Below are positions 21,769 to 38,233 of a stretch of DNA of 38,233 bases, piece by piece. The position numbers and the translations under genes are program-made. The notes below the pieces were generated by a model, which searched no databases, was not told the origin of the DNA, and was given only the letters and a program-made list of their open reading frames with translations. Every line of letters starts with the position of its first letter. Positions within the stretch are counted from its first letter, which is position 1. The DNA is from an uncultured bacterium. Its GTDB lineage: Bacteria; Hydrogenedentota; Hydrogenedentia; Hydrogenedentales; JAEUWI01. The stretch covers positions 1-38,233 of the forward strand of contig CAXBPH010000032.1 in assembly GCA_963977445.1 (NCBI GenBank), given 5' to 3'.

Positions 21769-22139
21769 TTCCAGAATCGCTCCTGATTTGGGTTGTGTAC
21801 CCGATATAATTGCCGTAATCCTGCCATTCGACAGGAGAAAGCTACATAGCAGAAGATCTTGCATGATTATAAGTTACCAAAATGTAGGATTTTGGATGGG
21901 GTCTGCATCGCTGTTTTGTTTAACCAACGTCGATCGTCGCTTATGGTAGTTTATAAGTCCTTGCGGTGTAAAGTTTTGTGTCTGTTCTTGACATTTGTTG
22001 AGCTTGTTCTGTATCATACGCTGTGGAATGAACTGCAATTGTCACGCCAGTACTTGGGTCCTGAATGTCGACCAGCAGTCCTCCCCGCACTGATTCCCTT
22101 TCCAGGCACAACCGTATAGTAATAAAAGGTGGATTCATT

Positions 22140-25100
22140 TTGTCTAAGAGAGAAATATCCCGGAGCGGGTTGTACGAACCGTATTATGAGCATGATGCTT
22201 GTGGTATTGGGTTCATGTGCAACATCGACGGAAAGCGCTCCCACGAAGTAATTCAAAACGGCCTTCAGATTTTAGTCAATTTGACCCACCGAGGGGCCTG
22301 TGGCTGCGATCCGGAAACCGGTGATGGTTGTGGCATTATGCTTCACCTCCCCCATGAACTCTTCAAGGAAGACGTTCTGGAGCACGGTTTCGAGTTGCCT
22401 GAACCGGGCGACTACGGCGTGGGCATGATTTTCCTGCCAAAAGATCGGGAATCCCGTGAGTCGTGCATGCAGATCCTCAACAAGGCGATTTCCGAGGGAG
22501 ATCAGGAATTGCTCGGTTGGCGTGACGTGCCCCGGAATTCTGAGGCCATCGGCTGGTTGGCCCGTGAAAACGAACCCACCGTTCGCCAGGTTTTCATTCG
22601 TCGCTCGGAAGATCTTAGTATAGATGAGTTTGAGCGTAGGCTTTACGTCATTCGCAAATCGGCCACCCAGATGATCGGCAACTCGGTCATTTCGGGCAAG
22701 TCTGAATATTATGTGCCCAGCATGTCAGCCCGCACGATCGTGTACAAGGGCCTCATGCTCCCCGACGCAATGGACAAGTACTATCTTGACCTGGCGGATG
22801 AGCGGGCCATGAGCGGCATGGCCCTGGTGCACCAGCGGTACAGCACGAACACCTTGCCTGCCTGGTCGCTGGCCCAGCCCTTCCGCTTTCTGGCGCACAA
22901 CGGTGAAATCAATACCCTTCGCGGTAATCTGAACATGATGGACTCCCGTGAGCATCACTTTGAGAGCTCGCTTTTCGGTGAGGATCTGGCCAAGGTTCGC
23001 CCCATACTCAGTCCCGGTTCCAGTGATTCGGCCAACTTCGACAACGCCTTCGAGCTGTTGGTGCGTGGTGGTCGCGATGTGGACCATGCCATGGCGATGA
23101 TGGTTCCAGAGCCCTGGAGCGGTCATGAGAGCATGCCCGACGACAAAAAAGCATTCTACGAATTCCACGCCTGCAAGATGGAGCCGTGGGATGGTCCTGC
23201 TTCCATGGCCTTCTCCGATGGTGTGCGTATTGGCGCCGTGTTGGACCGGAATGGTCTTCGGCCATCGCGCTATTGGGTCACCAGTGACAACCAGGTCATC
23301 ATGGCTTCCGAAGCGGGCGTGCTGCACCACATCACACAAGATAAGGTGGTGAAAAAGGGGCGCCTCGAGCCTGGCCGTATGTTCCTCGTCGACATGGCCG
23401 AGGGTCGCATCGTTGATGACGCCGAACTCAAAGAGAAATTTGCCAACCGCAATCCTTACCGGGAGTGGCTGGACACGTATCGTATTGAGATGCCGACGGA
23501 TTTGGAGGAAGGGACTTCCACCCAGGAAGAAACGCCTCTTATGGAACGTCAGCAGGTCTTTGGCTATACCCGTGAGGATATGGAAATTATTCTCACGCCG
23601 ATGGCCGAAGATGGAAAAGAGCCAACGGGCTCCATGGGTAACGACGCCGCGCTGGCGGTGCTTTCGCCCCGTCCCCAGTTGCTCTTTAATTACTTTAAGC
23701 AGCTTTTTGCCCAAGTGACGAACCCGCCCATTGACCCGATTCGCGAAGATATCGTTATGTCTCTCGAGACCGATATCGGCCTGGAAGGGAACCTGTTGGG
23801 CGAGAGTCCCGAAGACTGTAAGCAGCTTCATCTCAAGTCTCCCATTCTCAGCAACGCGCAGTTGGACTTCATTAAGAAACTGGATCGCGACGGATTTCGT
23901 GCTGCGGTCGTTTCTACCCTTTTTGAAGCCGACAAGGGTCCGGCCGAAATGGACCGGGCGCTACACGCTATCTGCAAAGAAGCGGCACGTTGTCTTGAAG
24001 ACGGCGCGAATATGATCATCCTGTCGGATCGTGGTGTGAGTAAAAAACTTGCTCCGATTCCCAGTCTGATGGCCACGGGTGCGGTTCACCAGTATCTGGT
24101 GCACAAGCACAAGCGCAGTGAATGCGGGTTGATTATCGAGACCGGTGAAGCCCGCGAAGTTATGCATTTTGCCCTGCTTACGGGCTACGGCGCTGGCGCG
24201 GTGAACCCCTACCTGGCGTTGGAAACTCTGGACGACCTGAAGCATCGTGAAATGTTCGTCGAGAAGAAGCCGGGTATGGCCCACAAAAATTATATTAAGG
24301 CCCTCGAAAAGGGTCTGCTGAAGGTCATGTCGAAAATCGGCATTTCCACGCAGCAGAGTTATCGTTGTGCCCAGATTTTCGAGGCGGTTGGCCTGAATTC
24401 GGCCATCGTGGAGCGCTGCTTTTCCGGTACGGCATCACGTATCGAAGGTATTGGGCTCAAGGAAGTCGCCTTGGAAAGCCTGATGCGCCATGCCATGGCC
24501 TACCCCGAGAAACCTGCCCGCCGCGCTGAACTTGATGTGGGTGGTGCCTATCGCTGGCGTCGTCGTGGCGAATTCCACCAGTGGAATCCCGAGACCGTCG
24601 CCAAACTGCAGCATTCCACCAGTCAGAATAATCAGAAGACCTACGATGAGTTTGCGGAAGAAGTGAACAATCGTAACCGGACCCTTGCGGCCCTGCGTGG
24701 TCTGTTGGAATTCAAAGAAGGCACACCCATTCCGCTGGAACAGGTGGAGCCTGCCTCTGAGATCGTGAAGCGCTTTTGCACCGGTGCCATGTCCTATGGC
24801 TCGATTAGTGCGGAGTCCCACGAAAATCTCGCCATTGCTATGAATCGCATCGGTGGTCGCAGCAATACGGGTGAAGGTGGTGAAGATCCCCGTCGTTTTG
24901 AGCGGGATGAAAAAGGCGATCTCCGTCGAAGCGCCATTAAGCAGGTGGCTTCAGGACGCTTTGGCGTGACCAACGAATATCTCGTTAATTCTGATGAGCT
25001 TCAAATCAAAATGGCTCAAGGTGCCAAGCCCGGCGAAGGTGGTCAGCTTCCCGGCCATAAAGTATTCGAGAATATCGCAACGGTTCGTTATTCGACGCCG

Positions 25101-26675
25101 GGTGTCGAGCTCATTTCTCCGCCACCCCACCATGATATCTATTCCATTGAAGATTTGGCGCAGCTTATCCACGACCTGAAGAACGCCAACGTTCACGGCA
25201 ATGTTTCTGTGAAGCTGGTATCGGAAGTCGGGGTCGGCACCATCGCTGCCGGTGTTTCCAAAGGTAAGGCCGACTTGGTCCTTATCAGCGGACACGACGG
25301 CGGCACGGGTGCTTCGCCACTGACGTCTATCAAGTATGCTGGACTTCCCTGGGAGCTTGGCCTGACGGAGACCCACCAGGTACTGGTCGAAAACGACCTC
25401 CGTGATCGCATCCGCGTCCAGGTGGACGGCCAGATGAAAACCGGTCGCGACGTCGCCATCGGGGCGCTGTTGGGTGCCGACGAGTTTGGTTTTGCTACGG
25501 CTCCCCTTATCGTCTCCGGCTGTATCATGATGCGCAAGTGTCATTTGAATACCTGCCCGGTGGGTATTGCTACCCAGGACCCAGAGCTGCGGAAGAAATT
25601 CCAAGGCAAGCCCGAACACGTGGTGAACTATTTCTTCTTCGTGGCCGAAGAGTGCCGCAAGATAATGGCGGAGTTGGGATTTCGGACCATGACGGAAATG
25701 GTAGGCCGCGCTGACATGCTTAAGTTTTCGCCCTTGCCAGAGCATTGGAAAGCCAAGCACCTCGACTTCTCCCGGGTGCTTCATGTGGCGAAGGCGTGGG
25801 ATAATTCCACCCTCCATCACAGCAAGACTCAGGATCATGGTCTGGACGGTGCGTTGGACCATACGCTTATTGAACAGGCCAAGGCCGCATTGGAAAAGAA
25901 GGAAAAGGTTCGCATTAAGGTTGATATCAAAAACGTCAACCGAACGGTGGGCACGATGCTCTCCAGCGAACTGACCCGTCGCCACGGCCTGGGAATGTAT
26001 ACGGGCAGTCTTCCGGAAGATTTGGTCTGGATTGATTGCATGGGTATCGGTGGCAACAGTTTTGGTGCCTTTATCATCCAGGGTGTTACACTCAACATCG
26101 TTGGGGAAAGCAATGACTATGTGGGTAAAGGACTTTCTGGCGGTAAGATCATTGTATCGCCCTCGCCAGAATTTTCGGGTATCCCAGGTGAGAATATTAT
26201 TATCGGCAACGTGGCGCTCTACGGTGCGACCGCTGGTCAGGCCTATATCAACGGTGTGGCAGGTGAGCGTTTCGCCGTCCGTAACAGTGGTGCCTGGACC
26301 GTCGTTGAAGGGGTTGGCGGCCATGGTTGCGAATACATGACCGGGGGACGGGTTGCTGTCCTCGGTGAGACGGGACGTAACTTTGCCGCCGGTATGAGTG
26401 GTGGCATCGCCTACATTTATGATAAGAGCGGGTCCTTCTCCCTGAAGTGCAACATGGGTAGTGTGGACTTGAAGGGGCTGCATGCCGATAGCGTCGTCGA
26501 CCTGAAGACCATGCTCGAAAATCACGTTAAATACACCGACAGCGCCGTGGCGAAATCCATACTGGCAAACTGGACCGAAGAGCAGCAGCACTTCGTCCGC
26601 GTTATGCCCCGTGATTATGCCCGCGTTTTGAAGCAGCAAAAACAGGAACAGCCGGAGGTAACCCATGCTTCCTGA
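22140..26675 (+). CDS. gltB: Glutamate synthase large subunit
   Basis: EHDACGIG, HQRYSTNT, AHNGEINT, EPWDGPA, QGAKPGEGGQL, CHLNTCPVG and GXGXG repeats. Probable start is TTG at 22140 after AAAGGTGG. Confidence 0.98.
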   Translation: MSKREISRSGLYEPYYEHDACGIGFMCNIDGKRSHEVIQNGLQILVNLTHRGACGCDPETGDGCGIMLHLPHELFKEDVLEHGFELPEPGDYGVGMIFLPKDRESRESCMQILNKAISEGDQELLGWRDVPRNSEAIGWLARENEPTVRQVFIRRSEDLSIDEFERRLYVIRKSATQMIGNSVISGKSEYYVPSMSARTIVYKGLMLPDAMDKYYLDLADERAMSGMALVHQRYSTNTLPAWSLAQPFRFLAHNGEINTLRGNLNMMDSREHHFESSLFGEDLAKVRPILSPGSSDSANFDNAFELLVRGGRDVDHAMAMMVPEPWSGHESMPDDKKAFYEFHACKMEPWDGPASMAFSDGVRIGAVLDRNGLRPSRYWVTSDNQVIMASEAGVLHHITQDKVVKKGRLEPGRMFLVDMAEGRIVDDAELKEKFANRNPYREWLDTYRIEMPTDLEEGTSTQEETPLMERQQVFGYTREDMEIILTPMAEDGKEPTGSMGNDAALAVLSPRPQLLFNYFKQLFAQVTNPPIDPIREDIVMSLETDIGLEGNLLGESPEDCKQLHLKSPILSNAQLDFIKKLDRDGFRAAVVSTLFEADKGPAEMDRALHAICKEAARCLEDGANMIILSDRGVSKKLAPIPSLMATGAVHQYLVHKHKRSECGLIIETGEAREVMHFALLTGYGAGAVNPYLALETLDDLKHREMFVEKKPGMAHKNYIKALEKGLLKVMSKIGISTQQSYRCAQIFEAVGLNSAIVERCFSGTASRIEGIGLKEVALESLMRHAMAYPEKPARRAELDVGGAYRWRRRGEFHQWNPETVAKLQHSTSQNNQKTYDEFAEEVNNRNRTLAALRGLLEFKEGTPIPLEQVEPASEIVKRFCTGAMSYGSISAESHENLAIAMNRIGGRSNTGEGGEDPRRFERDEKGDLRRSAIKQVASGRFGVTNEYLVNSDELQIKMAQGAKPGEGGQLPGHKVFENIATVRYSTPGVELISPPPHHDIYSIEDLAQLIHDLKNANVHGNVSVKLVSEVGVGTIAAGVSKGKADLVLISGHDGGTGASPLTSIKYAGLPWELGLTETHQVLVENDLRDRIRVQVDGQMKTGRDVAIGALLGADEFGFATAPLIVSGCIMMRKCHLNTCPVGIATQDPELRKKFQGKPEHVVNYFFFVAEECRKIMAELGFRTMTEMVGRADMLKFSPLPEHWKAKHLDFSRVLHVAKAWDNSTLHHSKTQDHGLDGALDHTLIEQAKAALEKKEKVRIKVDIKNVNRTVGTMLSSELTRRHGLGMYTGSLPEDLVWIDCMGIGGNSFGAFIIQGVTLNIVGESNDYVGKGLSGGKIIVSPSPEFSGIPGENIIIGNVALYGATAGQAYINGVAGERFAVRNSGAWTVVEGVGGHGCEYMTGGRVAVLGETGRNFAAGMSGGIAYIYDKSGSFSLKCNMGSVDLKGLHADSVVDLKTMLENHVKYTDSAVAKSILANWTEEQQHFVRVMPRDYARVLKQQKQEQPEVTHAS

Positions 26676-28185
26676 TAAAGAAAAAGGGTTCATGCTCTTC
26701 GATCGCGAATTGCCGCAGGATGAAGCGCCGGATGAACGTCTGAAGCACTACAAAGAGTTTTCCACGTCGCTGCCGCCCGAGCGTATTACGGAGCAGGCGT
26801 ATCGTTGCATGAATTGCGGAATTCCTTTTTGTCATAGCGGTTGTCCGCTGGGCAATCAAATTCCCGATTTTAATGAACTGATGAAGGACGAGGATTGGGA
26901 AGAAGCGCTTCACGTGCTTCACTCAACCAATAATTTTCCAGAATTCACCGGTCGGGTGTGTCCTGCGCCATGCGAGACTGCCTGTGTGCTGGGCATCAAT
27001 GAGCCCGCCGTCACGATCGAAATCAACGAACGGGAAATCGCCGACCGCGGTTGGCGTGAGGGCTGGGTCACCCCACAAGTTCCAGAGCGGCGTACGGGCA
27101 AGACCGTTGCTGTAGTTGGCTCGGGGCCTGCGGGTCTTGCCGCTGCACAGCAGCTGAATCGTGCCGGGCACAATGTGGTCGTGTATGAGCGCTCCGATGA
27201 GCCCGGTGGATTGCTTATGTATGGCATTCCCAACTTCAAGCTCGATAAGCAGACCGTACTACGACGGGTTGGCCAGTTGAAAGAAGAAGGCGTTGAGTTT
27301 ATTTGCAATGCCGAAGTGGGTGTCAATGTACCCACCAGTAAGCTGGATCAATACGACGCTGTTCTCATTGCTATCGGTTCCACTAAAAGCCGTACCTTTG
27401 AGGGAATGAGTGTTCCCGGCTCTGACTTGAAGGGCATTTATCCGGCAATGGACTTTCTGCCCCAGCAGACGCGACGTGTCCTTGGTAAGACGGTAAAAGT
27501 AGAGGAAATACTGGCGACCGAGAAAAACGTTATCGTTATTGGCGGTGGAGATACCGGATCTGACTGCGTGGGAACAAGTTTGCGCCAGGGCTGTAAAAGC
27601 CTGGTCAACCTTGAGCTCATGCCGAAGCCCCCTGTGGATCGCGTGGGAAGCAATCCCTGGCCCCAGTGGTCCTTCGTGTTTCGCTCGTCTTCCAGCCACA
27701 AAGAAGGTGGTGAACGTCGGTACAGCGTGCTGACCAAGTCCTTTGAGGATGATGGTAAGGGCAATGTAAGCGCGTTGAATACCGTGCAGCTCGCGTGGGG
27801 CGAACCCGATGAAACGGGTCGCCGTCAGATGCAGGAAGTTCCCGGTACCGAAGAACGCATACCAGCAGAACTCGTGCTTCTGGCTATGGGATTCACCCAG
27901 CCGGAGACGGATACGTTCGTGAAGGAACTGGATCTGACGTTGGATCGCAATCGCTTTGGTCAGGGTATTCAAGCCAATACCCTGGACTTCATGACGACGA
28001 AAGACAAGTATTTTGTGGCCGGCGATGCCCGTCGTGGTCAGTCGCTGGTGGTCTGGGCGATACACGAAGGCCGTGAATCTGCACGGGCCATAGACCTGTA
28101 TCTCATGGGCGAGTCCACGTTGCAGGCCAGTGACAGCCAGGGATACGAGAGTCTCTCCCTTGAAGGTTCCCCCGTAGGCACCTGA
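26665..28185 (+). CDS. gltD: Glutamate synthase small subunit
   Basis: RCMNCGIPFC, GCPLGN, NNFPEFTGRVCPAPCE, GSGPAG, GGGDTGSDC and RRGQSLVVWAI. Confidence 0.97.
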   Translation: MLPDKEKGFMLFDRELPQDEAPDERLKHYKEFSTSLPPERITEQAYRCMNCGIPFCHSGCPLGNQIPDFNELMKDEDWEEALHVLHSTNNFPEFTGRVCPAPCETACVLGINEPAVTIEINEREIADRGWREGWVTPQVPERRTGKTVAVVGSGPAGLAAAQQLNRAGHNVVVYERSDEPGGLLMYGIPNFKLDKQTVLRRVGQLKEEGVEFICNAEVGVNVPTSKLDQYDAVLIAIGSTKSRTFEGMSVPGSDLKGIYPAMDFLPQQTRRVLGKTVKVEEILATEKNVIVIGGGDTGSDCVGTSLRQGCKSLVNLELMPKPPVDRVGSNPWPQWSFVFRSSSSHKEGGERRYSVLTKSFEDDGKGNVSALNTVQLAWGEPDETGRRQMQEVPGTEERIPAELVLLAMGFTQPETDTFVKELDLTLDRNRFGQGIQANTLDFMTTKDKYFVAGDARRGQSLVVWAIHEGRESARAIDLYLMGESTLQASDSQGYESLSLEGSPVGT

Positions 28186-28219
28186 GTCCACACCGCTTGA
28201 CCTATCAACGGCCTGGAAT

Positions 28220-28228
28220 TGGTATAAT
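28220..28228 (+). promoter_or_regulatory. Candidate extended -10 promoter upstream of the peptide array
   Basis: A perfect TGnTATAAT (TGGTATAAT). A TTGACC lies at 28197-28202 but with a 20 bp spacer. A second candidate, TGCTATGCT, is at ~28393-28401. Confidence 0.35.
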
Positions 28229-28436
28229 TTCCAATTTTGGGCCGTTTTTTTAGCCAACTGTCAGCAAAAGTGGAACTTTTTTCGTTTTACAGGGGATTAG
28301 ATGAAGAGGGTGTAACATCCTTGGCAGCCCGTCGGTACAGTAGGTATACCAAGGGCCGACGGCAGCACGGCTTCTACCATTAGAGGTCGGTGTGCTATGC
28401 TCTGGAGGTGCCCTTACTGTTGGAAGGAATTTACTG

Positions 28437-28586
28437 TTGAAACACCTGACATTGATTGCCCGAACACCCCTTCGCGCTGAGGAATTCACCACGGGACAGA
28501 AATTGAGCCTTGCCGCTGGAATTACGCAAGCTATTTCCGCCTTTTTCGTCACCAAAGAGCCCCCTGTGGTTACGACGACGCCCTGA
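28437..28586 (+). CDS. Putative precursor peptide P1 (49 aa)
   Basis: TTG start after AAGGA. Translation: MKHLTLIARTPLRA-EEFTTGQKLSLAAGITQAISAFFVTKEPPVVTTTP. Confidence 0.8.
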   Translation: MKHLTLIARTPLRAEEFTTGQKLSLAAGITQAISAFFVTKEPPVVTTTP

Positions 28587-28632
28587 TTCCTACGTTTTCA
28601 TCAACGAATACGGATACGAAGAGGAAGCTATT

Positions 28633-28830
28633 TTGAAACATTTACGCACCATATCCTGCACGCCCCTACAGGCGCAGCAAGCAAGTTTTAGTTTTGCAGC
28701 TATTTTTTCACTGGTTGCGGATATCCTCGCCGCTGTTGCCTTGGCCGTTACTGCCAAGGAAAGTTCCAATTTGACCGGCCTGACCGGTCTCCTGACGGGC
28801 GGCACGAGCGGCACGAGCACCCCTCCCTGA
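28633..28830 (+). CDS. Putative precursor peptide P2 (65 aa)
   Basis: TTG start after GAGGA. Translation: MKHLRTISCTPLQA-QQASFSFAAIFSLVADILAAVALAVTAKESSNLTGLTGLLTGGTSGTSTPP. Confidence 0.8.
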   Translation: MKHLRTISCTPLQAQQASFSFAAIFSLVADILAAVALAVTAKESSNLTGLTGLLTGGTSGTSTPP

Positions 28831-28935
28831 AGAGATTGCATGGTAGTGGTCGGCGAGAAGCTGATACTTGAAACGAGTACCTAACCAGAGGCTTCCTGCA
28901 TCGTATTGTAGTCGCAGGGCCAGGAGGGAATATTG

Positions 28936-29103
28936 ATGCGACATTTGACGTGCTTATCCAAGCGTCCGGAACGGGCACAAACGGGGGTTTGCGCCACTAT
29001 AGGAAGTGACTACCAGGCGCTGCTATGCTTCATCATTGAAGCGCTCAATACGGTTTTCCCCAGCTTCATCCAGTCAAAGACGCCAACGCAGACCGCGATC
29101 TGA
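28936..29103 (+). CDS. Putative precursor peptide P3 (55 aa; not in the ORF track)
   Basis: ATG after a strong AGGAGG SD. Translation: MRHLTCLSKRPERA-QTGVCATIGSDYQALLCFIIEALNTVFPSFIQSKTPTQTAI. Confidence 0.85.
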   Translation: MRHLTCLSKRPERAQTGVCATIGSDYQALLCFIIEALNTVFPSFIQSKTPTQTAI

Positions 29104-29109
29104 TTGCGT

Positions 29110-29316
29110 ATGGGGAGCGGTGACCAGCGTGGGGCGGTCCACGTGAGAATGATAAGTCGAATTCCGGAAAGGGCGCAAAGCCTCGCGCCGGAAGTGAAGC
29201 TTACGTTCTTGCGAGAGCTTCTCGTCGCCTCGGGAGATACCTCGGCACTTCGTGGCTTCCTCACCGTGACCATCCCGCTCTTCGTCAACAAGGATCCAAG
29301 CAACCCCGCATCATAA
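29110..29316 (+). CDS. Putative precursor peptide P4 (start uncertain)
   Basis: Translation: (MGSGDQRGA)VHVRMISRIPERA-QSLAPEVKLTFLRELLVASGDTSALRGFLTVTIPLFVNKDPSNPAS. It carries the same leader motif. Confidence 0.75.
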   Translation: MGSGDQRGAVHVRMISRIPERAQSLAPEVKLTFLRELLVASGDTSALRGFLTVTIPLFVNKDPSNPAS

Positions 29317-29399
29317 TATATGGGGTTGCGTTTCAAACTTGTAGCGGCTGCCAAAATATGCTCTAATAGGCGGAACCGAGAACAAACCGGAGTGAGTAC

Positions 29400-29525
29400 A
29401 TGAAACACATCAGGCAGATTTCGACCCCTAAGGCCGATGCGTTTGTGGATTTCTACAACGCCCTCTACCGTGCGTGGATAGACTTTCGCAATGGCAAAAA
29501 GGACGAGGCCCAATCGGGGTTCTAG
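29400..29525 (+). CDS. Putative precursor peptide P5 (41 aa; not in the ORF track)
   Basis: ATG after GGAG. Translation: MKHIRQISTPKA-DAFVDFYNALYRAWIDFRNGKKDEAQSGF. Confidence 0.8.
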   Translation: MKHIRQISTPKADAFVDFYNALYRAWIDFRNGKKDEAQSGF

Positions 29526-29550
29526 TTCTTCAAAAACGATACATGTAGTA

Positions 29551-29591
29551 CCGGGGCCTGACGCCCAAAGCGCGGGTTCCGGTTCCTTTGT
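29551..29591 (+). terminator. Imperfect GC-rich hairpin with weak U-tail between the peptide array and the modifier genes
   Basis: CCGGGGCCTG-A-CGC / CCAAA loop / GCG-CGGGTTCCGG, followed by TTCCTTTGT. Confidence 0.4.
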
Positions 29592-29638
29592 TCAGGGGTG
29601 CCGATCTGCGGTTCGCCCGATGGAGACTATGCGCGACC

Positions 29639-30184
29639 ATGATTCGTGGGGAACATAGCTTTATCCGGGGTACGGAACAGGACGATGTGGAGGCCCTGTT
29701 CGGCCTTTATGCGCCCGGCGTACTTCGGGCCGGGCTACTCGATGCGCGGCGGGAACCCTTGCTGGTCACGCGGGACGATCTTCGCGATCTCCTGACCCGA
29801 AAGGAAATCGCGGACGGTAGCTTTTACACCGTTGAGTCGAAGACGGGGGCCATCGTGGGATTTTGTAGCATTCGCGGATTGAACACCGATGCCCGATTTG
29901 CTGAGTATGGTATTCAGTTCACCGATACGGACTGCTATGGGGCCGATCTGGCGAGGGAAGTGCATGATTTTCTCCTGGATCGGGCGTTTAAGCGTCTGGG
30001 GCTGCGCAAGGTTATTGCCCACGCTCTCACCGAAGAAACGGCGATGGTAGAATTTCTCCGGGGGAAGGGATTCATGTCTGCGGGCGTCCAGCGGGAAATT
30101 CTGTTTTCCCAGGGCACGTGGCATCACCTGGAAACGCTTGTCTTGAATAATCCGTCCTTCAACGCTTCCCAGGCCGTGAGTTAG
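29639..30184 (+). CDS. RimJ/RimL-type GNAT N-acyltransferase
   Basis: MIRGEHSFIR..EQDD start, AFKRLGLRKV and GF..AGVQRE...GTWH C-terminus. Confidence 0.8.
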   Translation: MIRGEHSFIRGTEQDDVEALFGLYAPGVLRAGLLDARREPLLVTRDDLRDLLTRKEIADGSFYTVESKTGAIVGFCSIRGLNTDARFAEYGIQFTDTDCYGADLAREVHDFLLDRAFKRLGLRKVIAHALTEETAMVEFLRGKGFMSAGVQREILFSQGTWHHLETLVLNNPSFNASQAVS

Positions 30185-30186
30185 CT

Positions 30187-30816
30187 ATGCCTTTCACAAC
30201 CACAACCTATATTCGCCGCGCTGAACGGGACGACCTCGACACCGTTGTTGCGTGGATGGAAAGTGCCGACTTTCAGCATTTTCTCTACGGCGATCCTGCC
30301 CGTTCTCCCAAACTGGTTCGGGAAAAGATCGTCGCCATGCTGGGGCGCGCCGTAGGCCATACCATGCCCGGCGGTATCTATCTGTTGATTGACTCGCCCG
30401 CCTTGGGACCGGTGGGGCTATTGTCCCTGCAGAATATCAGCTGGCGGAATCGTTCGTGCAGTATTGATCTGTACATTGGCAAGACGGAGCATCGCAGTGG
30501 GATTATAGCGGCCGGCGCGGTGTACCAAACGTTGGAGTATTGCTTTCACGAGCTGAACCTCCACCGGGTCAGTGCGTTCATCTATAGTTTTAATACGGCT
30601 TCCTGGCGCATATTGGAAAAGACCGGCGCGAAACGGGAGCTTATCCTGCAGGATCACGTCGCCCGGGATGGCAACCTATTTGACCTCTATGGCTACGGGC
30701 TGCTTCGCAGTGAATTCGACGCGTTTCGCGCCGAGTACCACCATACCGCTTCCGGCTTCTCCCTCGAGGCGATGATCGAAACCTTGGGGCGTGCCGGCAC
30801 GGAGCCCGACGGTTGA
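30187..30816 (+). CDS. RimJ/RimL-type GNAT N-acyltransferase
   Basis: IRRAERDDL, ISWRNRSCSIDLYIG, YCFHELNLHRV, FNTASWRILEKTG and YGLLRSEF. Confidence 0.88.
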   Translation: MPFTTTTYIRRAERDDLDTVVAWMESADFQHFLYGDPARSPKLVREKIVAMLGRAVGHTMPGGIYLLIDSPALGPVGLLSLQNISWRNRSCSIDLYIGKTEHRSGIIAAGAVYQTLEYCFHELNLHRVSAFIYSFNTASWRILEKTGAKRELILQDHVARDGNLFDLYGYGLLRSEFDAFRAEYHHTASGFSLEAMIETLGRAGTEPDG

Positions 30817-31706
30817 ATATTGTATTGCTCGCGACGCTGGTTGCCTATGCGATTCATGCGGTATGGGTGCACTCGCTCCAAGGCCCCGAAGCCGACGAGA
30901 CCGATACCCACCTGCACCGGGGAATGCCGTTCCCGATAATGCCACTGGGGCTTTTTCTGTTGTGCCAGGCCCTGGGCTCACCCGGCATTGCCGCATTCAT
31001 AAAATCACCGGGTACCTTGATCTTCGGCAGTGCGTTTTTCCTCTGGATGCTCTATCGCCAAGTGAAAAAGAATCGCACCGAGGCAGATGGAGGCGGCGAT
31101 ATTCGTTCTCAATGCTCCTATGCCCTCGGCGGCGTCCTCCAATCGGGCCTGCTCGTCGTCTCGTGTTACCTGGCCTATGAGGCTGGCGCGATTGGCAGGA
31201 GCCTTTTCAGTCCCGGTTGGGGTATACTAGGGGTTGTTGCGGGTCACTTTATCTTCGGCGTATCCCTGTGTTTCAGCCATCGTTCACTCGATTCACTGAA
31301 AAATATCGGGCGTTACGTCTTAGGCGTGCGTTCCGTGGCCCGATTTGCATTTGAGGCTCCGCGCCAGGTTTTCGCGTGCCTTGACGTGAGTCTGATGGAA
31401 GAGATTATTTATCGTGTGGCGGCGCAGAGTGTACTTGTCGTCTTGGTAGGGAATCCCACGATAGCGATCGTGCTGGTTGCCATCATCTTTTCCATCGTGC
31501 ATCGCCATTTCTTCTACAACCCTATCGTGGATTCGATAGAGTTTTTGGCCTTTTCCTTGCTTTTGGGCGGGCTATATTACTGGTCGGAGAGCTTGATACT
31601 TGTGGTGATGATACACACCATACGAAATTTTGAGATTGTTTACTTTGATCATGCGGAAGGTCCGCTGGCTGTATCAACGGCCAGGGCACTCCGTTTAAGG
31701 GCCTGA
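30813..31706 (+). CDS. CPBP (CAAX protease type II/Abi) intramembrane glutamic metalloprotease
   Basis: Multiple TM segments, and all three motifs: EEIIYR (EExxxR), FSIVH (FxxxH) and HTIRN (HxxxN). Confidence 0.88.
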   Translation: MNIVLLATLVAYAIHAVWVHSLQGPEADETDTHLHRGMPFPIMPLGLFLLCQALGSPGIAAFIKSPGTLIFGSAFFLWMLYRQVKKNRTEADGGGDIRSQCSYALGGVLQSGLLVVSCYLAYEAGAIGRSLFSPGWGILGVVAGHFIFGVSLCFSHRSLDSLKNIGRYVLGVRSVARFAFEAPRQVFACLDVSLMEEIIYRVAAQSVLVVLVGNPTIAIVLVAIIFSIVHRHFFYNPIVDSIEFLAFSLLLGGLYYWSESLILVVMIHTIRNFEIVYFDHAEGPLAVSTARALRLRA

Positions 31707-31712
31707 ACAGGA

Positions 31713-32738
31713 ATGTCGGATACTTCAGATAAATTCATTGAACTGGCTAATTTGAAAAAGTCGTTCGTGCTTCGCAATTTCTTCGTGAAAGACGAAGATA
31801 CGGGCAAACGTCGCCTCTATCGAAAAACCTTCGTGCACGCAGTGCAAGGGGTGGATTTCAGCATTGCCCGGGGAGAGATATTTGGCTTGCTCGGGCCCAA
31901 CGGTGCGGGCAAGACCACGACCGTCAAAATGCTTAGTGGGCTGGTGAAGCCTGACGGCGGGCATGTCACGGTGGATGGCCTGGAAGTTGAGCGCTATCGC
32001 CAGAAAGTGTTGCGCAAAGTCGGGGTCGTTCTCGAAGGTACCCGTACCAGCATCTGGCCATTGACGCCCCTGGAAAATCTGGCCTACTACGGCAATCTAA
32101 AAAATGTAAAAGGGGCCGTACTTAAAGAGCGGTCAAACCGACTACTCGACTTTATCGGCCTCAAAGATAAGAAAAACGTGGAAGTACGTCATCTTTCACG
32201 TGGCCAGAAACAGAAATTGGCCATATGTATCGCCATGATTGCCGATCCACAGGTGCTTCTGCTTGACGAACCCACCACGGGGTTGGATGTGCAGAGTGCC
32301 CGCGCGATTAAAGATAAAATTATCGAAATGACTCGGGAGCACGGGAAGAGTGTTCTCGTCACGACCCACGACATGCATGTGGCGCAAGAGCTCTGCGACC
32401 GGATCGGAATTATTGACAAAGGGAAGCTCGTGGCCTGTAAGCCGACACAAGAGCTCCTCGGTAACTTTTCTGAGCAGGTCTACGTCTTCCAACTGGATCG
32501 CGAACCCGAGCTGGCGGCCCTGCAGGCCCTCCCCGGCGTTCTTTCGGTAGAGCGGGAACTTACGGTGGACGGTCCGGCGGCCGTGGTCAGTCTCCAACCA
32601 GATAGTGAAGTTCGCTCCCGCGCGCTTTACGCGGTGGTGGAGACACTCGCGCGTGGCTCCTTTGAACTACGGGGCATCTCGCAGCGACAGCAGAATCTGG
32701 AGAGTATTTTCCTCCAATTGACCACCAGCAGTATTTAA
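31713..32738 (+). CDS. ABC exporter ATP-binding subunit
   Basis: Walker A GPNGAGKT, signature LSRGQ, Walker B LLLDEPT and H-loop TTHD. Confidence 0.95.
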   Translation: MSDTSDKFIELANLKKSFVLRNFFVKDEDTGKRRLYRKTFVHAVQGVDFSIARGEIFGLLGPNGAGKTTTVKMLSGLVKPDGGHVTVDGLEVERYRQKVLRKVGVVLEGTRTSIWPLTPLENLAYYGNLKNVKGAVLKERSNRLLDFIGLKDKKNVEVRHLSRGQKQKLAICIAMIADPQVLLLDEPTTGLDVQSARAIKDKIIEMTREHGKSVLVTTHDMHVAQELCDRIGIIDKGKLVACKPTQELLGNFSEQVYVFQLDREPELAALQALPGVLSVERELTVDGPAAVVSLQPDSEVRSRALYAVVETLARGSFELRGISQRQQNLESIFLQLTTSSI

Positions 32739-32782
32739 CGAAATCGTTTCGATTACGGAATGAAACAGGAGTTCGGAGAAAC

Positions 32783-33631
32783 ATGAGTTTTCTTCTCGTT
32801 ATGAAAGCCGAAATTGTGCAGGCCCTTATCATAATGCGCCGATATTGGTTTCGTACCATCATCGGAATGGTTATGGGTTATGGCATGCTGCTCGTCCTCA
32901 TTGCCGGCTTTATGGTAAGCCGCAAAGAAGTGACCGACATGGCCGTGGGGCGTTTTGGCGATGCAGAATCCGCTACCAACTTTGTGCTTGGATTTATTAT
33001 CGGCATGTTCGCCTTTGGGATTGTGGGTATGTTCACCCAGGGCATTCAGGGAATGGCAAGCACCGGCGTGTTGGAGCAGTTGTGCCTCAGCCCCCATGGC
33101 CTGATTACGAACTTTCTTGCCCGCAGCACGGTCGCAGGTATTACGACCTGTTTGTCTTCAAGTTTCATGGTTTGGCTGGTCACAGAGACGGTGGGGGGGC
33201 AGCTCTATTTCGATGGGCTGGCTTTGGCGTCCGTGCTGGTGCTCACCTTCATAAATCTGCTCGGATTTGGCTTTATGATGGGGGGGCTGGTCCTGGTCTT
33301 CAAGCAGGTGGGGCAGGTCGCCATCCTGATACGAATGGGGCTCTTTGCCCTGGCTATCTTCGCCAAAGAGGAACTGCTCCACAAAGGCTGGGCCATGGCA
33401 ACCTTTGTACATGCCCTTCCTATTGCGGATGCCGCCATCCTATTGAAATGGATATTAATCTCCAATCAGGGGCGTGAAGGAGACAACATGGAAAATTATG
33501 TCTCTGCCTTTCAGCACCCCTCCATGTTCTTTCTCATACTCAGTTGTGTGGTCTGGACCGGTTTGGGCATGACCTGCTTCAAACTGATGGAAAACTGGAG
33601 TCGCGCCAAAGGAACCCTGGGAACCTACTGA
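32783..33631 (+). CDS. ABC-2 type exporter permease
   Basis: About 6 TM helices, a GVLEQLCLSP motif and a C-terminal KGTLGTY; adjacent to the ATPase. Confidence 0.85.
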   Translation: MSFLLVMKAEIVQALIIMRRYWFRTIIGMVMGYGMLLVLIAGFMVSRKEVTDMAVGRFGDAESATNFVLGFIIGMFAFGIVGMFTQGIQGMASTGVLEQLCLSPHGLITNFLARSTVAGITTCLSSSFMVWLVTETVGGQLYFDGLALASVLVLTFINLLGFGFMMGGLVLVFKQVGQVAILIRMGLFALAIFAKEELLHKGWAMATFVHALPIADAAILLKWILISNQGREGDNMENYVSAFQHPSMFFLILSCVVWTGLGMTCFKLMENWSRAKGTLGTY

Positions 33632-35490
33632 TGGCACGAACCGCACTGCATCGATTCGAACGGGACGGCAGACGATTCGTGTTGGACACAGACACCTGTT
33701 TCTGTTTTGAGTGCGACGCCATATCCTGGGATGTGTTGGGATACTATCCCGACACGCCGGTGAATCAAATCGTCCATACCCTCGGTACGACGCACCCACC
33801 GGCGGAGCTGGAAGAAGTCATCGGCGAATTGGAGTGGTTGCGGGCAACAAAGTCCATCTTGCCGTTGAAAAAACAGCAGGATCAGATCAAAGATTTTGAG
33901 TTGGTGCCCGGACTGCGTCAATTGGATCTATCCCTTGACGGCAGAAATCGTCTCACGGAACGCTGTGATGGGGCACTCATGCTGCTTTTGGGGCGTTCGG
34001 GCACGCAGAAGAATCTGAAAATAAGCCTGTTCTTCAGTGATTTTGAAGGATTGGGCGAATGGTTGCCCCAGTGGGGGAAACGTGCCTTTGATTGCGCGAA
34101 GATGGCGGGGAAAGTTTTGACCCTTGGTCTGGTGCATACCGCCCCGCGCCGCCACCGCGCCGATAAAGCACTCGGAGACCACCCGGTAAACGTTGCCTGT
34201 ACCTTTACCACGGCAGACACCCTGGCGCCGACCTTGGGCGCCTGGTCGAAGGCCCGTTCCGGCGCGTTGGGACGTTTAACACGTAGCATCGGCACTGGGG
34301 AAGGAGAAGAGCTCTCCGTAACACTCGTACCCCACAACGGCACGTTTGACGCGGCGGTACGCTACCTGGTCAAAGAGGGCTTCAAGCGGGTCGATATCGA
34401 CATCATCGCTGCCTATGGTCACGTCGCCGCCGGGGAGAGCGATTCTATCGTGTCCGGACTGGAGTCAACGGCGGTCTTTTATGCCCAGGAACTCCTTAAG
34501 CGAAATTACTTCCGTCTGGAGCCCATCGCCGGACTCTTCCATCAGATATACGAGGGTAAGGCCCGCTCTCGGGCGGACGAAGCAGGCACTTGGTTACTCG
34601 CCATGGATGAACGTGGCGATATTTATCCTTCACGGCACTTTTTCGACGTCGCCGAGTATCGCCTGGGCAATATATGTGACGGTGATTTTGATGAGGACCG
34701 CCGCTCAACCTTTGACGACATGGGTATCATGACGACGTCGCCCTGTGGCACCTGTTGGGCACGTAATCTGTGCGGTGGCGGATACAGCGCGGTCCATCGC
34801 GTTCTTGGAGGTTCCATTCGTCGTCCCGATGGCACGTGGTGTGATTCCCAGCGAGATTGGTATGCTGCCGCGATCGCGGCGTTTAATATGCTTTCGGCAG
34901 AGGGGGTGGATTTTGCCCGCCTCTATCAGAACCTGCGCCCCGGAAAGGGGATGTCGCTCTGGGGAATGGCCCGGGCGGCCCTCACGATGAACGTGGGGCT
35001 ACGTCCCATTGAAGAATCGGATGCGGCGCTGCTGACCCGCTGGGAAAACTGGAGCGAGGCCGCCTATTTTCTGGGCAACGAATATGGCGTATTCCTGGCA
35101 ACCCGCTATGACCGGGAGATGGATTCCCTTCATCCCAGGGGCATTGAGCAGGAATTCATGATCATCTCCCGCCGCGGGGCTCCCCTGGGGCTTCTGAAAA
35201 TCAGGCCGGATGGTGTTGCTGGATTGGCTCGGGTCTGGATTTACTTCCAAGACCAGGCGCTCTATCAAGACAAGGCCACACGGAGTAGTTTTTCCCGAAT
35301 TATTAGAGAGGCTTCTAAGCAGGGCGCTTTCCGCCGATTCGTCGCGGCTTCCGGGCCCGGTGATAACGGACTGAGCGAGTTTCTGGAGGCCATCGGCTTC
35401 GCTCCCCTGGGTGTCGAGCGCGAGGCGTTGTTTCTCCACGATGCCTACCACGATATCGCGTTATTTCAGATGGTTATGAGTCCATCTTAA
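33631..35490 (+). CDS. RRE + degenerate radical-SAM core + SPASM + C-terminal GNAT fusion protein
   Basis: ATG overlaps the permease TGA. N-terminus is CteB-like RRE (HRFERDGRRFVLD...EEVIGELEWL). SPASM region reads GDIYPS..LGNI..CGTCWARNLCGGG..WC. C-terminus is a GNAT (LRPIEESD...GF..LGVERE). No CxxxCxxC motif. Confidence 0.8.
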   Translation: MARTALHRFERDGRRFVLDTDTCFCFECDAISWDVLGYYPDTPVNQIVHTLGTTHPPAELEEVIGELEWLRATKSILPLKKQQDQIKDFELVPGLRQLDLSLDGRNRLTERCDGALMLLLGRSGTQKNLKISLFFSDFEGLGEWLPQWGKRAFDCAKMAGKVLTLGLVHTAPRRHRADKALGDHPVNVACTFTTADTLAPTLGAWSKARSGALGRLTRSIGTGEGEELSVTLVPHNGTFDAAVRYLVKEGFKRVDIDIIAAYGHVAAGESDSIVSGLESTAVFYAQELLKRNYFRLEPIAGLFHQIYEGKARSRADEAGTWLLAMDERGDIYPSRHFFDVAEYRLGNICDGDFDEDRRSTFDDMGIMTTSPCGTCWARNLCGGGYSAVHRVLGGSIRRPDGTWCDSQRDWYAAAIAAFNMLSAEGVDFARLYQNLRPGKGMSLWGMARAALTMNVGLRPIEESDAALLTRWENWSEAAYFLGNEYGVFLATRYDREMDSLHPRGIEQEFMIISRRGAPLGLLKIRPDGVAGLARVWIYFQDQALYQDKATRSSFSRIIREASKQGAFRRFVAASGPGDNGLSEFLEAIGFAPLGVEREALFLHDAYHDIALFQMVMSPS

Positions 35491-35599
35491 TCGGCCCTTG
35501 CACCGCACCGAATCTTGGAGTAGACTGGTTATATATGGGAACTGTCGTCTCTACGCCGACGTACAGGAAATGTCAGATTCAAACTTCGAGGCCTATCCG

Positions 35600-35989
35600 A
35601 TGATTAAAGTTGTGATTGCTGATGACGACCCACACGTTGCCCGTTTTGAAGGACGCGTAATGGAATCGCTCGGATATTCAGCTATCCTCTGCCGCGATGG
35701 ATTGCGTGCGCTTTCTGTGTTGGAAGATAATCCCGATGTAAGTTTACTTATTACCGACGTCTCCATGCCCAATATGGGAGGCCGTGAGTTGGTTAGTGAG
35801 CTCCGCCGACATGGGCAATTTCAACGCCTGCCTATCATTTTGACCTCGGGGGTCGTTCGGGTTTCGGAAATCGCCGACTTACTCGATATCGGCGTGACCT
35901 GTTTTCTGGGAAAACCAGTGGAACTGGGTGACTTGAAAAGTTATGCCCGCAGTCTGGTAAGCCAGAAGACGGGCTCTCTGGTCGGCTGA
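35600..35989 (+). CDS. Single-domain response regulator (receiver)
   Basis: ADDD, LITDVSMPNMGG and LGKP; GAGG SD before ATG 35600. Confidence 0.9.
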   Translation: MIKVVIADDDPHVARFEGRVMESLGYSAILCRDGLRALSVLEDNPDVSLLITDVSMPNMGGRELVSELRRHGQFQRLPIILTSGVVRVSEIADLLDIGVTCFLGKPVELGDLKSYARSLVSQKTGSLVG

Positions 35990-36010
35990 CCGCGAGCAAC
36001 GGAGACCTGT

Positions 36011-36397
36011 ATGATACGTGTAGTCATTGCAGAAGATGAACCGACGGTAGCCAAAACGATAGCCCGCTGTATGCTCTCTCTGGGGTATCACCCCGTAATA
36101 TGCAGCGATGGTCAACGTGCCCTGAATGTCATCGAAGACAATCCAGACACGAAGCTACTCATCACGGACGTTTCCATGCCGAATTTCGATGGTCGTGATC
36201 TGGTCCAGCGATTACAAGCGAACGAAAAATTCAGCAAAATACCCACCATTGTCATCTCCGGTTTGGTGAGCGTGGCCGAGATTGCCCACCTGGTCGACAA
36301 TGGCGTGACCTACTTTCTGGGCAAGCCTGTCAATCTCGAAGACCTGAAGGAACACGCACGAAGTCTGGTTGAGCATGACCGTCATCCTGTAGAGTGA
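36011..36397 (+). CDS. Single-domain response regulator (receiver), paralog of the upstream gene
   Basis: AEDE, LITDVSMPNFDG and LGKP; GGAGA SD. Confidence 0.9.
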   Translation: MIRVVIAEDEPTVAKTIARCMLSLGYHPVICSDGQRALNVIEDNPDTKLLITDVSMPNFDGRDLVQRLQANEKFSKIPTIVISGLVSVAEIAHLVDNGVTYFLGKPVNLEDLKEHARSLVEHDRHPVE

Positions 36398-36403
36398 CCC
36401 GTC

Positions 36404-37879
36404 TCAGTCACACCAGATCGAATAGAATTGGCCGTTGCGCACGCCGATTCGTAATTGAATGGGGGTCGAGGGTGGGGGGAGTGGGGTATCCCATGTCAGG
36501 GGCATATCGAGACTATCTAATTCTACCGGCACCGCCGTCGCAATTTTCTGGCCCGTGCTATCCAGCGCTTCGACGGTAATTTCTCCCCAGTTCGCGCGAC
36601 CATTGATGTGTATGGTTGAGCCAGCACGGGTGAAGGGGACCGTCGTGAGGATTCCTCCGGTGTAGTCGCCTTCCATGGCCACAAAGCGATCGCGTTTTAT
36701 CGTTCCATAGCCGATGGCACCTTGAATGGGGCCACTGTCCGTGCCTTCATAGGGATCGTGTCGATAGCGTCGATCGCTATAGTAGAAACGCAACTCGTCT
36801 CCTTCTTCAATGGGCGGATTATTCGCAACAGCGACGTTGAATCGATCCCAATCCCCCACCTCACCATTGGGGATGAATGGTGTGCGGTCGCCTACGCGGG
36901 TAAAGGCGTTGCCGTCGCGGCTCGTGGCAAGCTGTATATTCAAAAAAGAGTCAAGGGGACGGTTTTGGAAATGTTGTACCAGACCAATGTATTGATTGCC
37001 GTATTTGAATACCCCCATGCCGTAGATTTCTGAAGCGATGGCATCATCCAGGTCGGCAGACATCACGATGGGTGCACTGTCGGGGGCGCTATGTTCCCAA
37101 TGGATAAAATCATTGGACGAGGTGTGGGCAACCACCCGGCCCCAAAAATGCTTCTGGTACCACGGGTCGCTTTTCCACGCAGCATCCAGCGCCTCGGGTT
37201 GACGTTTGCTTCGGCCATAGAGATGATAACGCCCCTGTTCCGGGTCATAGGTCCAGTGGGTTGAGCCGTCTACGATGGCATCGGTTGTAAAGGTCTCGAT
37301 GTTGGTCCAGTGTATTCCATCGGGGCTCCCTGCAACCCCGAGACCCCGCCGTTGACCTCGGTGAAAGAGATCCATGTGGGGGCCCTCATAGGGGCGCTCG
37401 ATGCTCAGGTACCCCATCTTATAACGGCGTGTTGGATCCGGGTCCTTGTCATCACGAAAAACGCCGAAGAGTTCATAGAACCAGGGAAAGGGACCCTCGC
37501 CGGGGCTGTCGATGGACGCCCGTACCAGAATGTTGGAGGGTTCGCCCTCCCATGGAACGAGATCCATCAGGGGCTTGGTCCACGTGATGCCATCCTGGCT
37601 TTCCGCGTAACATACGCCTCGGGGCATGTAGTACCACATGCGATATAGGCCGTTTTCCTTCACTACGGAGCCATAGAGCAGGGGGCGTTGCTGTTCCCAG
37701 GCTTTGTCACCCGTGAGCACCGGGTTTTCGACCGCTTTTTCTACCGGCATGATTCGGCGGGTCAGGTTCTCCGAAGTAGCGATAAAATGGTCATCCAGGA
37801 AGAGCTCATGGTTATTTCCGAGGCTAAGGGCCTCGGGGGCGGTCAGCAGAAGGGCAAGTGAAAGGATAAATGGGGTCAT
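36404..37879 (-). CDS. Secreted beta-propeller glycoside hydrolase-like protein (same family as 9187-10761)
   Basis: ELFLDD, YRMWY, YAESQDGITWTKP, SPDGIHW, SRDG and KRDRFV motifs. Probable start is ATG 37879 with a GGAG SD and signal peptide. Confidence 0.65.
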   Translation of the reverse strand: MTPFILSLALLLTAPEALSLGNNHELFLDDHFIATSENLTRRIMPVEKAVENPVLTGDKAWEQQRPLLYGSVVKENGLYRMWYYMPRGVCYAESQDGITWTKPLMDLVPWEGEPSNILVRASIDSPGEGPFPWFYELFGVFRDDKDPDPTRRYKMGYLSIERPYEGPHMDLFHRGQRRGLGVAGSPDGIHWTNIETFTTDAIVDGSTHWTYDPEQGRYHLYGRSKRQPEALDAAWKSDPWYQKHFWGRVVAHTSSNDFIHWEHSAPDSAPIVMSADLDDAIASEIYGMGVFKYGNQYIGLVQHFQNRPLDSFLNIQLATSRDGNAFTRVGDRTPFIPNGEVGDWDRFNVAVANNPPIEEGDELRFYYSDRRYRHDPYEGTDSGPIQGAIGYGTIKRDRFVAMEGDYTGGILTTVPFTRAGSTIHINGRANWGEITVEALDSTGQKIATAVPVELDSLDMPLTWDTPLPPPSTPIQLRIGVRNGQFYSIWCD

Positions 37880-38233
37880 GTTCGATCTCCAGAGAAGTGT
37901 TTGAATGATGTCATGGTAAAAGATCGGCGAAGCCTGTGCAAGAGCATGGAGCAGGGCAATCGCACTAAAATACCCCATCCGTTGCGCCCCATCTGATTTG
38001 ATGAAAGCCGTAGATTGAGGGGTGCCACTTGTCAATCAACATGGATGTGAAGTCGATATCGGGTATTTTAATGTTTCATGGGCGATTAGTGGGGATGACT
38101 TATTCGATATTTCAAGTGCCGTAGGTACAAGGATGACTTGATGGGTTCTTGCGAATCATGTCGTCACGCAATTTTTTTCAGATAAAACGACAAACCATGG
38201 ACGTGCCGCGCGATCTGGTACTCCAGTTCGTGC

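Follow-up and report, generated by a model that had tools for sequence, protein, structure and literature searches.

The window examined here is one whole contig of 38,233 bases (C32) from a 7.1 Mb genome (464 contigs, 56% GC) of an uncultured bacterium of the phylum Hydrogenedentota. On its forward strand it carries five co-oriented peptide genes (28437-29525) followed by six tightly packed genes, which encode, in order, two GNAT-family proteins (GNAT1 and GNAT2), a CPBP protease, an ATP-binding cassette (ABC) ATPase, an ABC-2 permease and a fusion protein. The last of these joins the recognition element (RRE) typical of pathways to ribosomally made, post-translationally modified peptides (RiPPs) to a 'dead' radical S-adenosylmethionine (SAM) fold, a SPASM domain and a third GNAT domain. 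The operon consists of known RiPP-type parts in an undescribed arrangement, and it is read here, with moderate confidence, as a leader-guided RiPP-type pathway of peptide maturation and export that is vertically inherited in Hydrogenedentota and likely has a conserved physiological role. An earlier note, made from the DNA letters, had described five co-oriented short open reading frames (ORFs) with a common leader motif and six co-oriented genes with gaps of '-4 to about 45' bases; all five frames are present on the + strand at the coordinates listed below, and the measured spacings between the successive six genes are 2, -4, 6, 44 and -1 bases.

28437-28586, + strand: p1, 49 residues, core family A (FTTGQKL...KE), TTG start
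28633-28830, + strand: p2, 65 residues, core family B, TTG start
28936-29103, + strand: p3, 55 residues, core family C (two conserved cysteines, ...SKTPTQT), ATG start with AGGAGGG upstream
29143-29316, + strand: p4, 57 residues from the GTG at 29143, core family D (APEVKLTF...PLFVNKDPSNP), start ambiguous
29400-29525, + strand: p5, 41 residues, core family E (ADAF.DF.NA..RAW.DF...KK.E), ATG start
29588-30184, + strand: GNAT1, RimJ/RimL-type, Acetyltransf_3 (38.8 bits against a Pfam cut-off of 25.4)
30187-30816, + strand: GNAT2, RimJ/RimL/SpeG-type, Acetyltransf_3 (61.2 bits against 25.4)
30813-31706, + strand: CPBP, Rce1-like glutamic intramembrane protease, PF02517 (42.5 bits against 22.4)
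31713-32738, + strand: ABC transporter ATPase, DrrA-like, ABC_tran
32783-33631, + strand: ABC-2-type permease, Pfam match below threshold (17.5 against 31.6 bits)
33631-35490, + strand: fusion protein, 619 residues from ATG

The five peptides have a common leader and distinct cores. In their alignment H3, P11 and A14 are invariant, and the five leaders follow M-K/R-H-[LIV]-x-x-[ILV]-[SA]-x-x-P-x-x-A, a form of the basic leader of about 14 residues, MKH-[ILV]-x-x-[ILV]-[ST]-x-x-P-x-x-A. A regular expression for the leader, applied to all six reading frames of the complete 7.1 Mb genome, gave seven matches. Five of them are the array; the other two are a gene for a 59-residue peptide, at the start of contig C319, and a 13-residue fragment. 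When 160,587 six-frame ORFs were ranked with a hidden Markov model (HMM) of the peptides, the window's five took the top places (E 8e-16 to 9e-12). The earlier note had named homologous operons without nearby leader-bearing peptides as an outcome that would tell against it; with the same HMM, 76 hits (E <= 1; one to six per locus) were found in 20 of the 21 related loci scanned, directly upstream of the operon, always upstream of GNAT1 and co-oriented with it. Each window peptide has orthologues in same-genus loci, and over 20 pairs the proportion of synonymous differences (pS) is 0.55-0.88, that is, near saturation, with a proportion of nonsynonymous differences (pN) of 0.06-0.30 and a pooled pN/pS of 0.26; for p1, the orthologues lie in L001, L033, L034 (two copies) and L035, with pN/pS far under 1. 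Near-saturated pS with low pN indicates that the peptide frames are translated and constrained. Chance ORFs were accordingly rejected as an explanation, on the specificity of the leader expression, the HMM ranking and the purifying selection.

The 70 hits with a placeable start codon, taken together with the window's five, form a set of 75 peptides that falls into five conserved core families, assigned by regular expression (which sorted two family E peptides into B).

Family A: FTTGQKL...KE
Family B: hydrophobic helix up to AKE
Family C: two cysteines, ...KTPTQT
Family D: APEVKLTF...PLF.NKDPSNP
Family E: ADAF.DF.NA..RAW.DF...KK.E

The most widespread of the five is family E, which always adjoins GNAT1. 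All families share a helix-terminal lysine, found in 74 of the 75 peptides across the five family alignments, at a column where arginine never occurs; in family E it is K33, invariant in 17/17 sequences. The residue that follows the lysine is mostly E, N, D or T, and the mean charge is +3.0 for the leaders and -1.3 for the tails. The precursor plan is thus a basic leader, a helical hydrophobic or amphipathic core running up to the near-invariant lysine, and a short acidic or polar tail. Within this plan p2 has a transmembrane-like hydrophobic helix (Kyte-Doolittle mean of 2.47 over 19 residues) up to AKE, followed by a Gly/Ser/Thr tail, whereas p5 is amphipathic, and in its AlphaFold2 (AF2) model residues 1-13 are unstructured and residues 14-39 form a helix. 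Pfam and NCBIfam searches returned no family for any of the five peptides. Purine runs resembling Shine-Dalgarno sequences lie 5' of p1, p2, p3 and p5. A peptide of locus L033 related to p4 lacks, as p4 does, the usual start codon at the canonical position, and the frames of both are still conserved.

The fusion protein is the most distinctive component of the operon, and its predicted domains and cysteine sites are as follows.

Residues 3-90: RRE-like winged helix
Residues 94-423: radical-SAM-type barrel and SPASM region lacking the SAM cluster
Residues 445-619: RimL-like GNAT domain
33697-33714, + strand: CxCxxC (C23, C25, C28) at strand 3/helix 1 of the RRE, in 144/153 relatives
34744-34842, + strand: AuxII-type cysteines C372, C375, C381 and C404, invariant in 50/50

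An AF2 model of the fusion protein (50 homologues, mean pLDDT of 85) was compared with known structures. Residues 3-422 of the model align with residues 1-450 of a chain of CteB (5wgg) with a Z-score of 27.0 and a root-mean-square deviation of 3.6 over 383 residues, and because the alignment starts at residue 3, the match includes the N-terminal leader-binding domain of CteB; anSME, which is without such a domain, aligns with the fusion protein only from residue 94. The predicted N-terminal domain has the topology of an RRE, with three strands followed by three helices, so that the model bears out the RRE that the earlier note had assigned to this protein. Residues 445-619 match RimL (Z 15.9), MccE (Z 14.7) and a lasso-peptide acetyltransferase (Z 13.9). 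At the level of sequence, the best NCBIfam matches are the QhpD, SCIFF and PapB maturases; the full-length maturase models stay below their cut-offs (TIGR03974, 61.3 against 425 bits; TIGR03906, 64.9 against 453 bits), as does a RimL-like match, whereas the SPASM domain model TIGR04085 exceeds its cut-off (32.6 against 27 bits).

The same note's description of this protein as a dead radical-SAM/SPASM scaffold also agrees with the cysteines. The CxxxCxxC motif, sought in the expected region, is absent in 153/153 full-length fusion relatives (and in 50/50 of those aligned), and CxxCx5C, which holds AuxII-type cysteines, is kept in all 153; the loss of the SAM cluster, as predicted from these residues, is a property of the whole fusion family. 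The AuxI-type ligands are replaced in the window's protein and lost in most relatives. The fourth cysteine of CxxCx5Cx3C is found in 16/153 and the upstream 'YPC' cysteine in 21/153, so the seven-cysteine SPASM motif is incomplete. The divergent members P0154, P0158 and P0162 are without the CxCxxC of the RRE and keep AuxI-type cysteines, which hints that CxCxxC replaces the lost AuxI ligands; it may thus be a replacement metal site. In P0194 (656 residues), a distant maturase relative outside this family, the SPASM motif is complete and the C-terminal extension is unrelated, and CxxxCxxC was not found by regular expression; this protein may represent a separate instance of a maturase with a dead radical-SAM site. 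In the ESM Atlas, the rank-3 match is a Bacillota cluster of 465-residue proteins with Radical_SAM and Acetyltransf_1 domains (score 0.83, a lead only), and active radical-SAM/GNAT fusions may therefore exist elsewhere.

Among the three GNAT domains, that of GNAT2 is the best conserved (41-83% identity across the related loci), and in the operon only the ATPase is better conserved; it resembles SpeG, RimJ and AAC(6') enzymes and keeps the RimJ/L-type C-terminal motifs. GNAT1, the conserved part of which begins at the ATG at 29639, the likely true start, and the C-terminal GNAT domain of the fusion protein are more divergent. The CPBP protease looks active, judging from its motifs EE..R, F...H and H..RN, which are invariant in 21/21 orthologues; its NCBIfam match to MroQ is weak (E 0.065) and far under the cut-off of that model.

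The operon is apparently near-universal and vertically inherited in Hydrogenedentota. Of 8000 candidates scored in a search with the fusion protein, 269 proved to be relatives (E <= 0.001); nearly all have 605-657 residues, and the names they carry are those of proteins from Hydrogenedentes metagenome-assembled genomes. The protein was found in 124/135 genomes of the phylum, in 83 of the 86 of high quality and in 61 of 66 genera, with an identity of 53-63% within the genus that declines to 27-29% in another class. In a profile search of 1.84 billion representatives, the family was recovered at E <= 1e-72 and was followed by a sharp drop; the next matches are maturases of 450-490 residues that cover profile positions 5-440 only, and the nearest relatives outside the family (P0167 and P0172-P0174) have an intact CxxxCxxC and full SPASM motifs. 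Twenty-two related loci were compared by blastx (L001, L002 and L033-L052), and all six genes stand in the same order in 20 of them, the exceptions being L002, which is cut by a contig end, and L042, which is rearranged upstream of the permease. Each of the 20 complete loci has three GNAT domains. Orthologue-level GNAT2 is missing as well from four genomes that have no fusion protein (G037, G039, G048 and G002; 93-97% complete), and a fifth such genome (G072, 88% complete) retains it. Recent horizontal transfer was considered and set aside: the GC content of the locus (52-58%) is similar to that of the genome (56%), the identities follow taxonomy and the synteny with gltBD recurs. In L042 (G071:C42; 3012-4610 and 10169-12993), only the permease and fusion genes stand together with a different upstream region, and an ORF resembling an acyl-CoA ligase lies approximately 6 kb upstream.

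Focusing on individual components, parts of the operon have counterparts in known systems. CteB, the maturase of SCIFF/ranthipeptides (5WGG, TIGR03974), has an N-terminal RRE, a radical-SAM-type barrel and SPASM in the same order as the fusion protein, but the latter has no CxxxCxxC, has lost the AuxI-type ligands in most relatives and carries an added C-terminal GNAT domain, and the precursors here are not Cys-rich. A GNAT encoded within a precursor-peptide cluster is also a feature of the selidamides (KspN, PhaN and NpuN), lipolanthines, goadvionins and lipoavitides. The earlier note had invoked GNATs as acylators of RiPPs, and the available part of one report provides the precedent, describing RiPP GNATs whose acceptors are N-termini or the side chains of lysine or ornithine (PMC13647313). 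In the selidamides the acceptor is a Lys/Orn side chain according to that part of the report (PMC13647313), to be compared with the invariant lysine here, whereas the NHLP/Nif11 leader with its Gly-Gly site and the class II lanthionine synthetase described there (PMC13647313) have no equivalent in the present leaders and among the six gene products, respectively. The GNATs here also differ from those of the selidamides and other N-acylated RiPPs in being of the RimJ/L type, and acylation is here a prediction.

For the protease, which the earlier note had proposed as a leader peptidase, precedent exists in the CPBP/M79 protease MroQ, a membrane protease of the same family that, in the section of the report available, removes the N-terminal leader of the small peptide AgrD (PMC10885120); the present operon differs in having no AgrB-like protease and no thiolactone chemistry. 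The TMcins (TmcA, TmcP and TmcBC), as set out in the accessible portion of their report, have precursors with a leader and a membrane helix; an intramembrane protease cleaves these membrane-embedded precursors, and a type V ABC transporter extracts them (PMC13712780). The present precursors, protease and transporter resemble this plan, but the protease of the TMcins is given there as an S2P/DUF3267 (PF11667) zinc enzyme (PMC13712780) instead of a CPBP protein, and no PF11667 hit was found in the proteins of this operon; the same portion presents the TMcins as Gram-positive pore-forming bacteriocins, with neither GNATs nor an RRE scaffold (PMC13712780). Eukaryotic CAAX processing by Rce1 shares the protease family and a short variable tail after a possibly lipid-modified residue. 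This is an analogy only: prenyl-cysteine is the modified residue there and a hypothetical acyl-lysine here, and C-terminal cleavage is likewise hypothetical in the present case. From the double-glycine class II bacteriocins, the locus differs in having no GG site and a DrrA-like/ABC-2 system in which no C39 peptidase domain was found. It shows the general hallmark of RiPPs, precursors that join a conserved leader to a distinct core and whose genes adjoin those of modifying-type enzymes. Neither the peptides nor the fusion protein as such are represented by a model in Pfam and NCBIfam (June 2026 release), and a full-text literature search, with subscription journals outside its coverage, returned no description of the operon, in agreement with the earlier note, which knew of no characterised class with this architecture.

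On the proposed pathway, the fusion protein would act as a scaffold, with the leader docked on its RRE, and one or more of the GNAT domains would transfer an acyl group, acetyl or longer, from acyl-CoA to the peptide. The likeliest acceptor would be the epsilon-amine of the invariant lysine. RimJ/L enzymes are N-alpha-acetyltransferases, and for this reason a new N-terminus at the invariant alanine may be the alternative. With the peptide in or on the inner membrane, the CPBP protease would cut off the leader, in the manner of MroQ acting on AgrD, or trim the tail after the modified lysine, and the ABC-2 transporter would extract the product from the membrane. Since the operon is near-universal and its core families are conserved, a conserved envelope, membrane or signalling role is likelier than the production of strain-specific antibiotics.

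Several points weigh against this pathway. The modification, the cleavage site and the export of the product are all inferred from the genes, and near-universal presence with conserved cores is atypical of RiPP natural products. The canonical acyl-CoA pyrophosphate loop of GNATs is Q/RxxGxG/A, and it is not conserved in any of the three domains: the beta4-alpha3 loop of GNAT1 and of the fusion GNAT domain is without it, and GNAT2 keeps a single invariant Arg there. One or two of the three domains may consequently not bind acyl-CoA, although the loop binds through backbone amides and its sequence alone is therefore not decisive. In Pfam, the GNAT match on the fusion protein is sub-threshold (15.4 against 24.3 bits, E 0.019) and no PqqD match was found on this protein. 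One family E peptide (L045) is without lysine at the conserved column, and the lysine could be a membrane-boundary residue and not an acceptor, a role that is disfavoured by the complete absence of arginine. Finally, the start of p4 is irregular: the canonical position is occupied by GCG, the GTG at 29143 leaves the leader three residues short and the TTG at 29104 adds a 13-residue extension.

A different view of the same genes, which we consider rather unlikely, is that the peptides are housekeeping membrane micro-proteins, with the leader as a sorting or cleavage signal, the CPBP protein as a dedicated signal peptidase, the ABC-2 transporter placing the peptides in the envelope, and the GNATs and scaffold serving as non-modifying chaperones or regulators. 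Phylum-wide vertical conservation, the conserved core families, the orphan leader-bearing peptide genes elsewhere in the genome, the degenerate acyl-CoA loop in two GNAT domains and the dead radical-SAM site would all be consistent with it; however, three GNAT domains are present in all 20 complete loci, the conservation of GNAT2 is second only to that of the ATPase, the RRE is kept, and the lysine is invariant though arginine would equally supply the charge. An unlikely and more speculative variant of the acylation pathway takes the operon as a bacterial counterpart of CAAX processing with a core envelope function, in which a GNAT would fatty-acylate the lysine, the CPBP protease would trim the tail, either in addition to the leader or in its place, the ABC-2 transporter would hand the lipopeptides to the outer envelope, and the former radical-SAM enzyme would be a leader-docking iron-sulfur scaffold that joins substrate and acyltransferase.

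Vertical near-universality and conserved cores with one invariant lysine argue against an ordinary strain-specific antibiotic cluster. The reading of the array as an unmodified multi-peptide bacteriocin seems quite unlikely to us; here the peptides would be class-II-like toxins, the CPBP protein (Abi-type) and the ABC-2 transporter would confer immunity, and the GNATs would detoxify intracellular peptide in the way that MccE detoxifies microcin C. It would fit that Abi/CPBP proteins confer immunity to bacteriocins in lactic acid bacteria, that the core helices are amphipathic or hydrophobic, that several different peptides stand in one array and that the GNAT domain of the fusion protein is MccE-like (Z 14.7). 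Bacteriocin loci are usually patchy and fast-evolving, whereas this operon occurs in 124/135 genomes of the phylum with an identity that falls with taxonomic distance, and its cores are orthologous families under purifying selection; moreover, the leaders are not of the double-glycine type, none of the six gene products has a C39 peptidase domain, and a leader-docking RRE scaffold would have no role. It is very improbable that the peptides are precursors of a small peptide-derived cofactor or signal, comparable to PQQ or mycofactocin, from which only the lysine and the residue next to it would be cut out for further elaboration. Descent from an RRE/radical-SAM/SPASM maturase, as in the PQQ and mycofactocin pathways, a phylum-wide distribution like that of a cofactor pathway and the single invariant residue fit such an origin, but the radical chemistry is gone, five long helical cores are conserved over their whole length, which would be needless if one or two residues were used, and the transporter in the operon is of a hydrophobic-substrate type.

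The leader-guided maturation pathway may extend beyond the array. Weaker HMM look-alikes were found on C117 (two adjacent), C38, C111, C319 and C63, and the genome may thus hold approximately eleven such precursors. These orphan ORFs, which lie far from the operon in the same genome (G000), combine an MKH-type leader like that of the array with a helical core and a lysine late in the sequence, and suggest that the machinery may serve more substrates than the five of the array.

C117:1349-1710, - strand: orphan leader-bearing short ORFs
C319:133-309, + strand: orphan leader-bearing short ORF
C38:19088-19369, + strand: orphan leader-bearing short ORF
C111:12908-13126, + strand: orphan leader-bearing short ORF
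C63:6781-6945, - strand: orphan leader-bearing short ORF

With regard to the surroundings of the operon, the glutamate synthase genes gltB and gltD (22065-28185) lie directly upstream of the array, and gltD or gltBD is found upstream of the operon in 12/22 related loci. The gltBD operon is separated from the peptide array by a hairpin directly after gltD.

28207-28246, + strand: strong intrinsic-terminator-like hairpin, 16-bp stem and T run

A promoter scan gave a result no better than chance (five found against 5.1 expected from shuffles), and an Rfam scan of 27500-36500 returned no RNA family. Immediately 3' of the operon are two stand-alone response-regulator receiver genes (35498-35989 and 36011-36397); a similar receiver gene lies downstream of the operon in L035 and not in the other loci. 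They are followed by a gene on the - strand (36404-38035) for a 543-residue protein without any Pfam match, which adjoins the operon in the same-genus loci L001, L002 and L033 (64-68% identity).

In conclusion, if the proposed pathway is correct, a radical-SAM maturase turned into a non-radical docking scaffold and fused to an acyltransferase would represent a new type of peptide-modifying enzyme and a clear example of a pseudoenzyme put to new use in the biosynthesis of peptides, and the invariant lysine would provide a precise hypothesis on its chemistry. For the uncultured Hydrogenedentota, the operon would be a molecular marker of the phylum, and a near-universal modified-peptide pathway would point to a role in the envelope, the membrane or signalling and not in chemical warfare.

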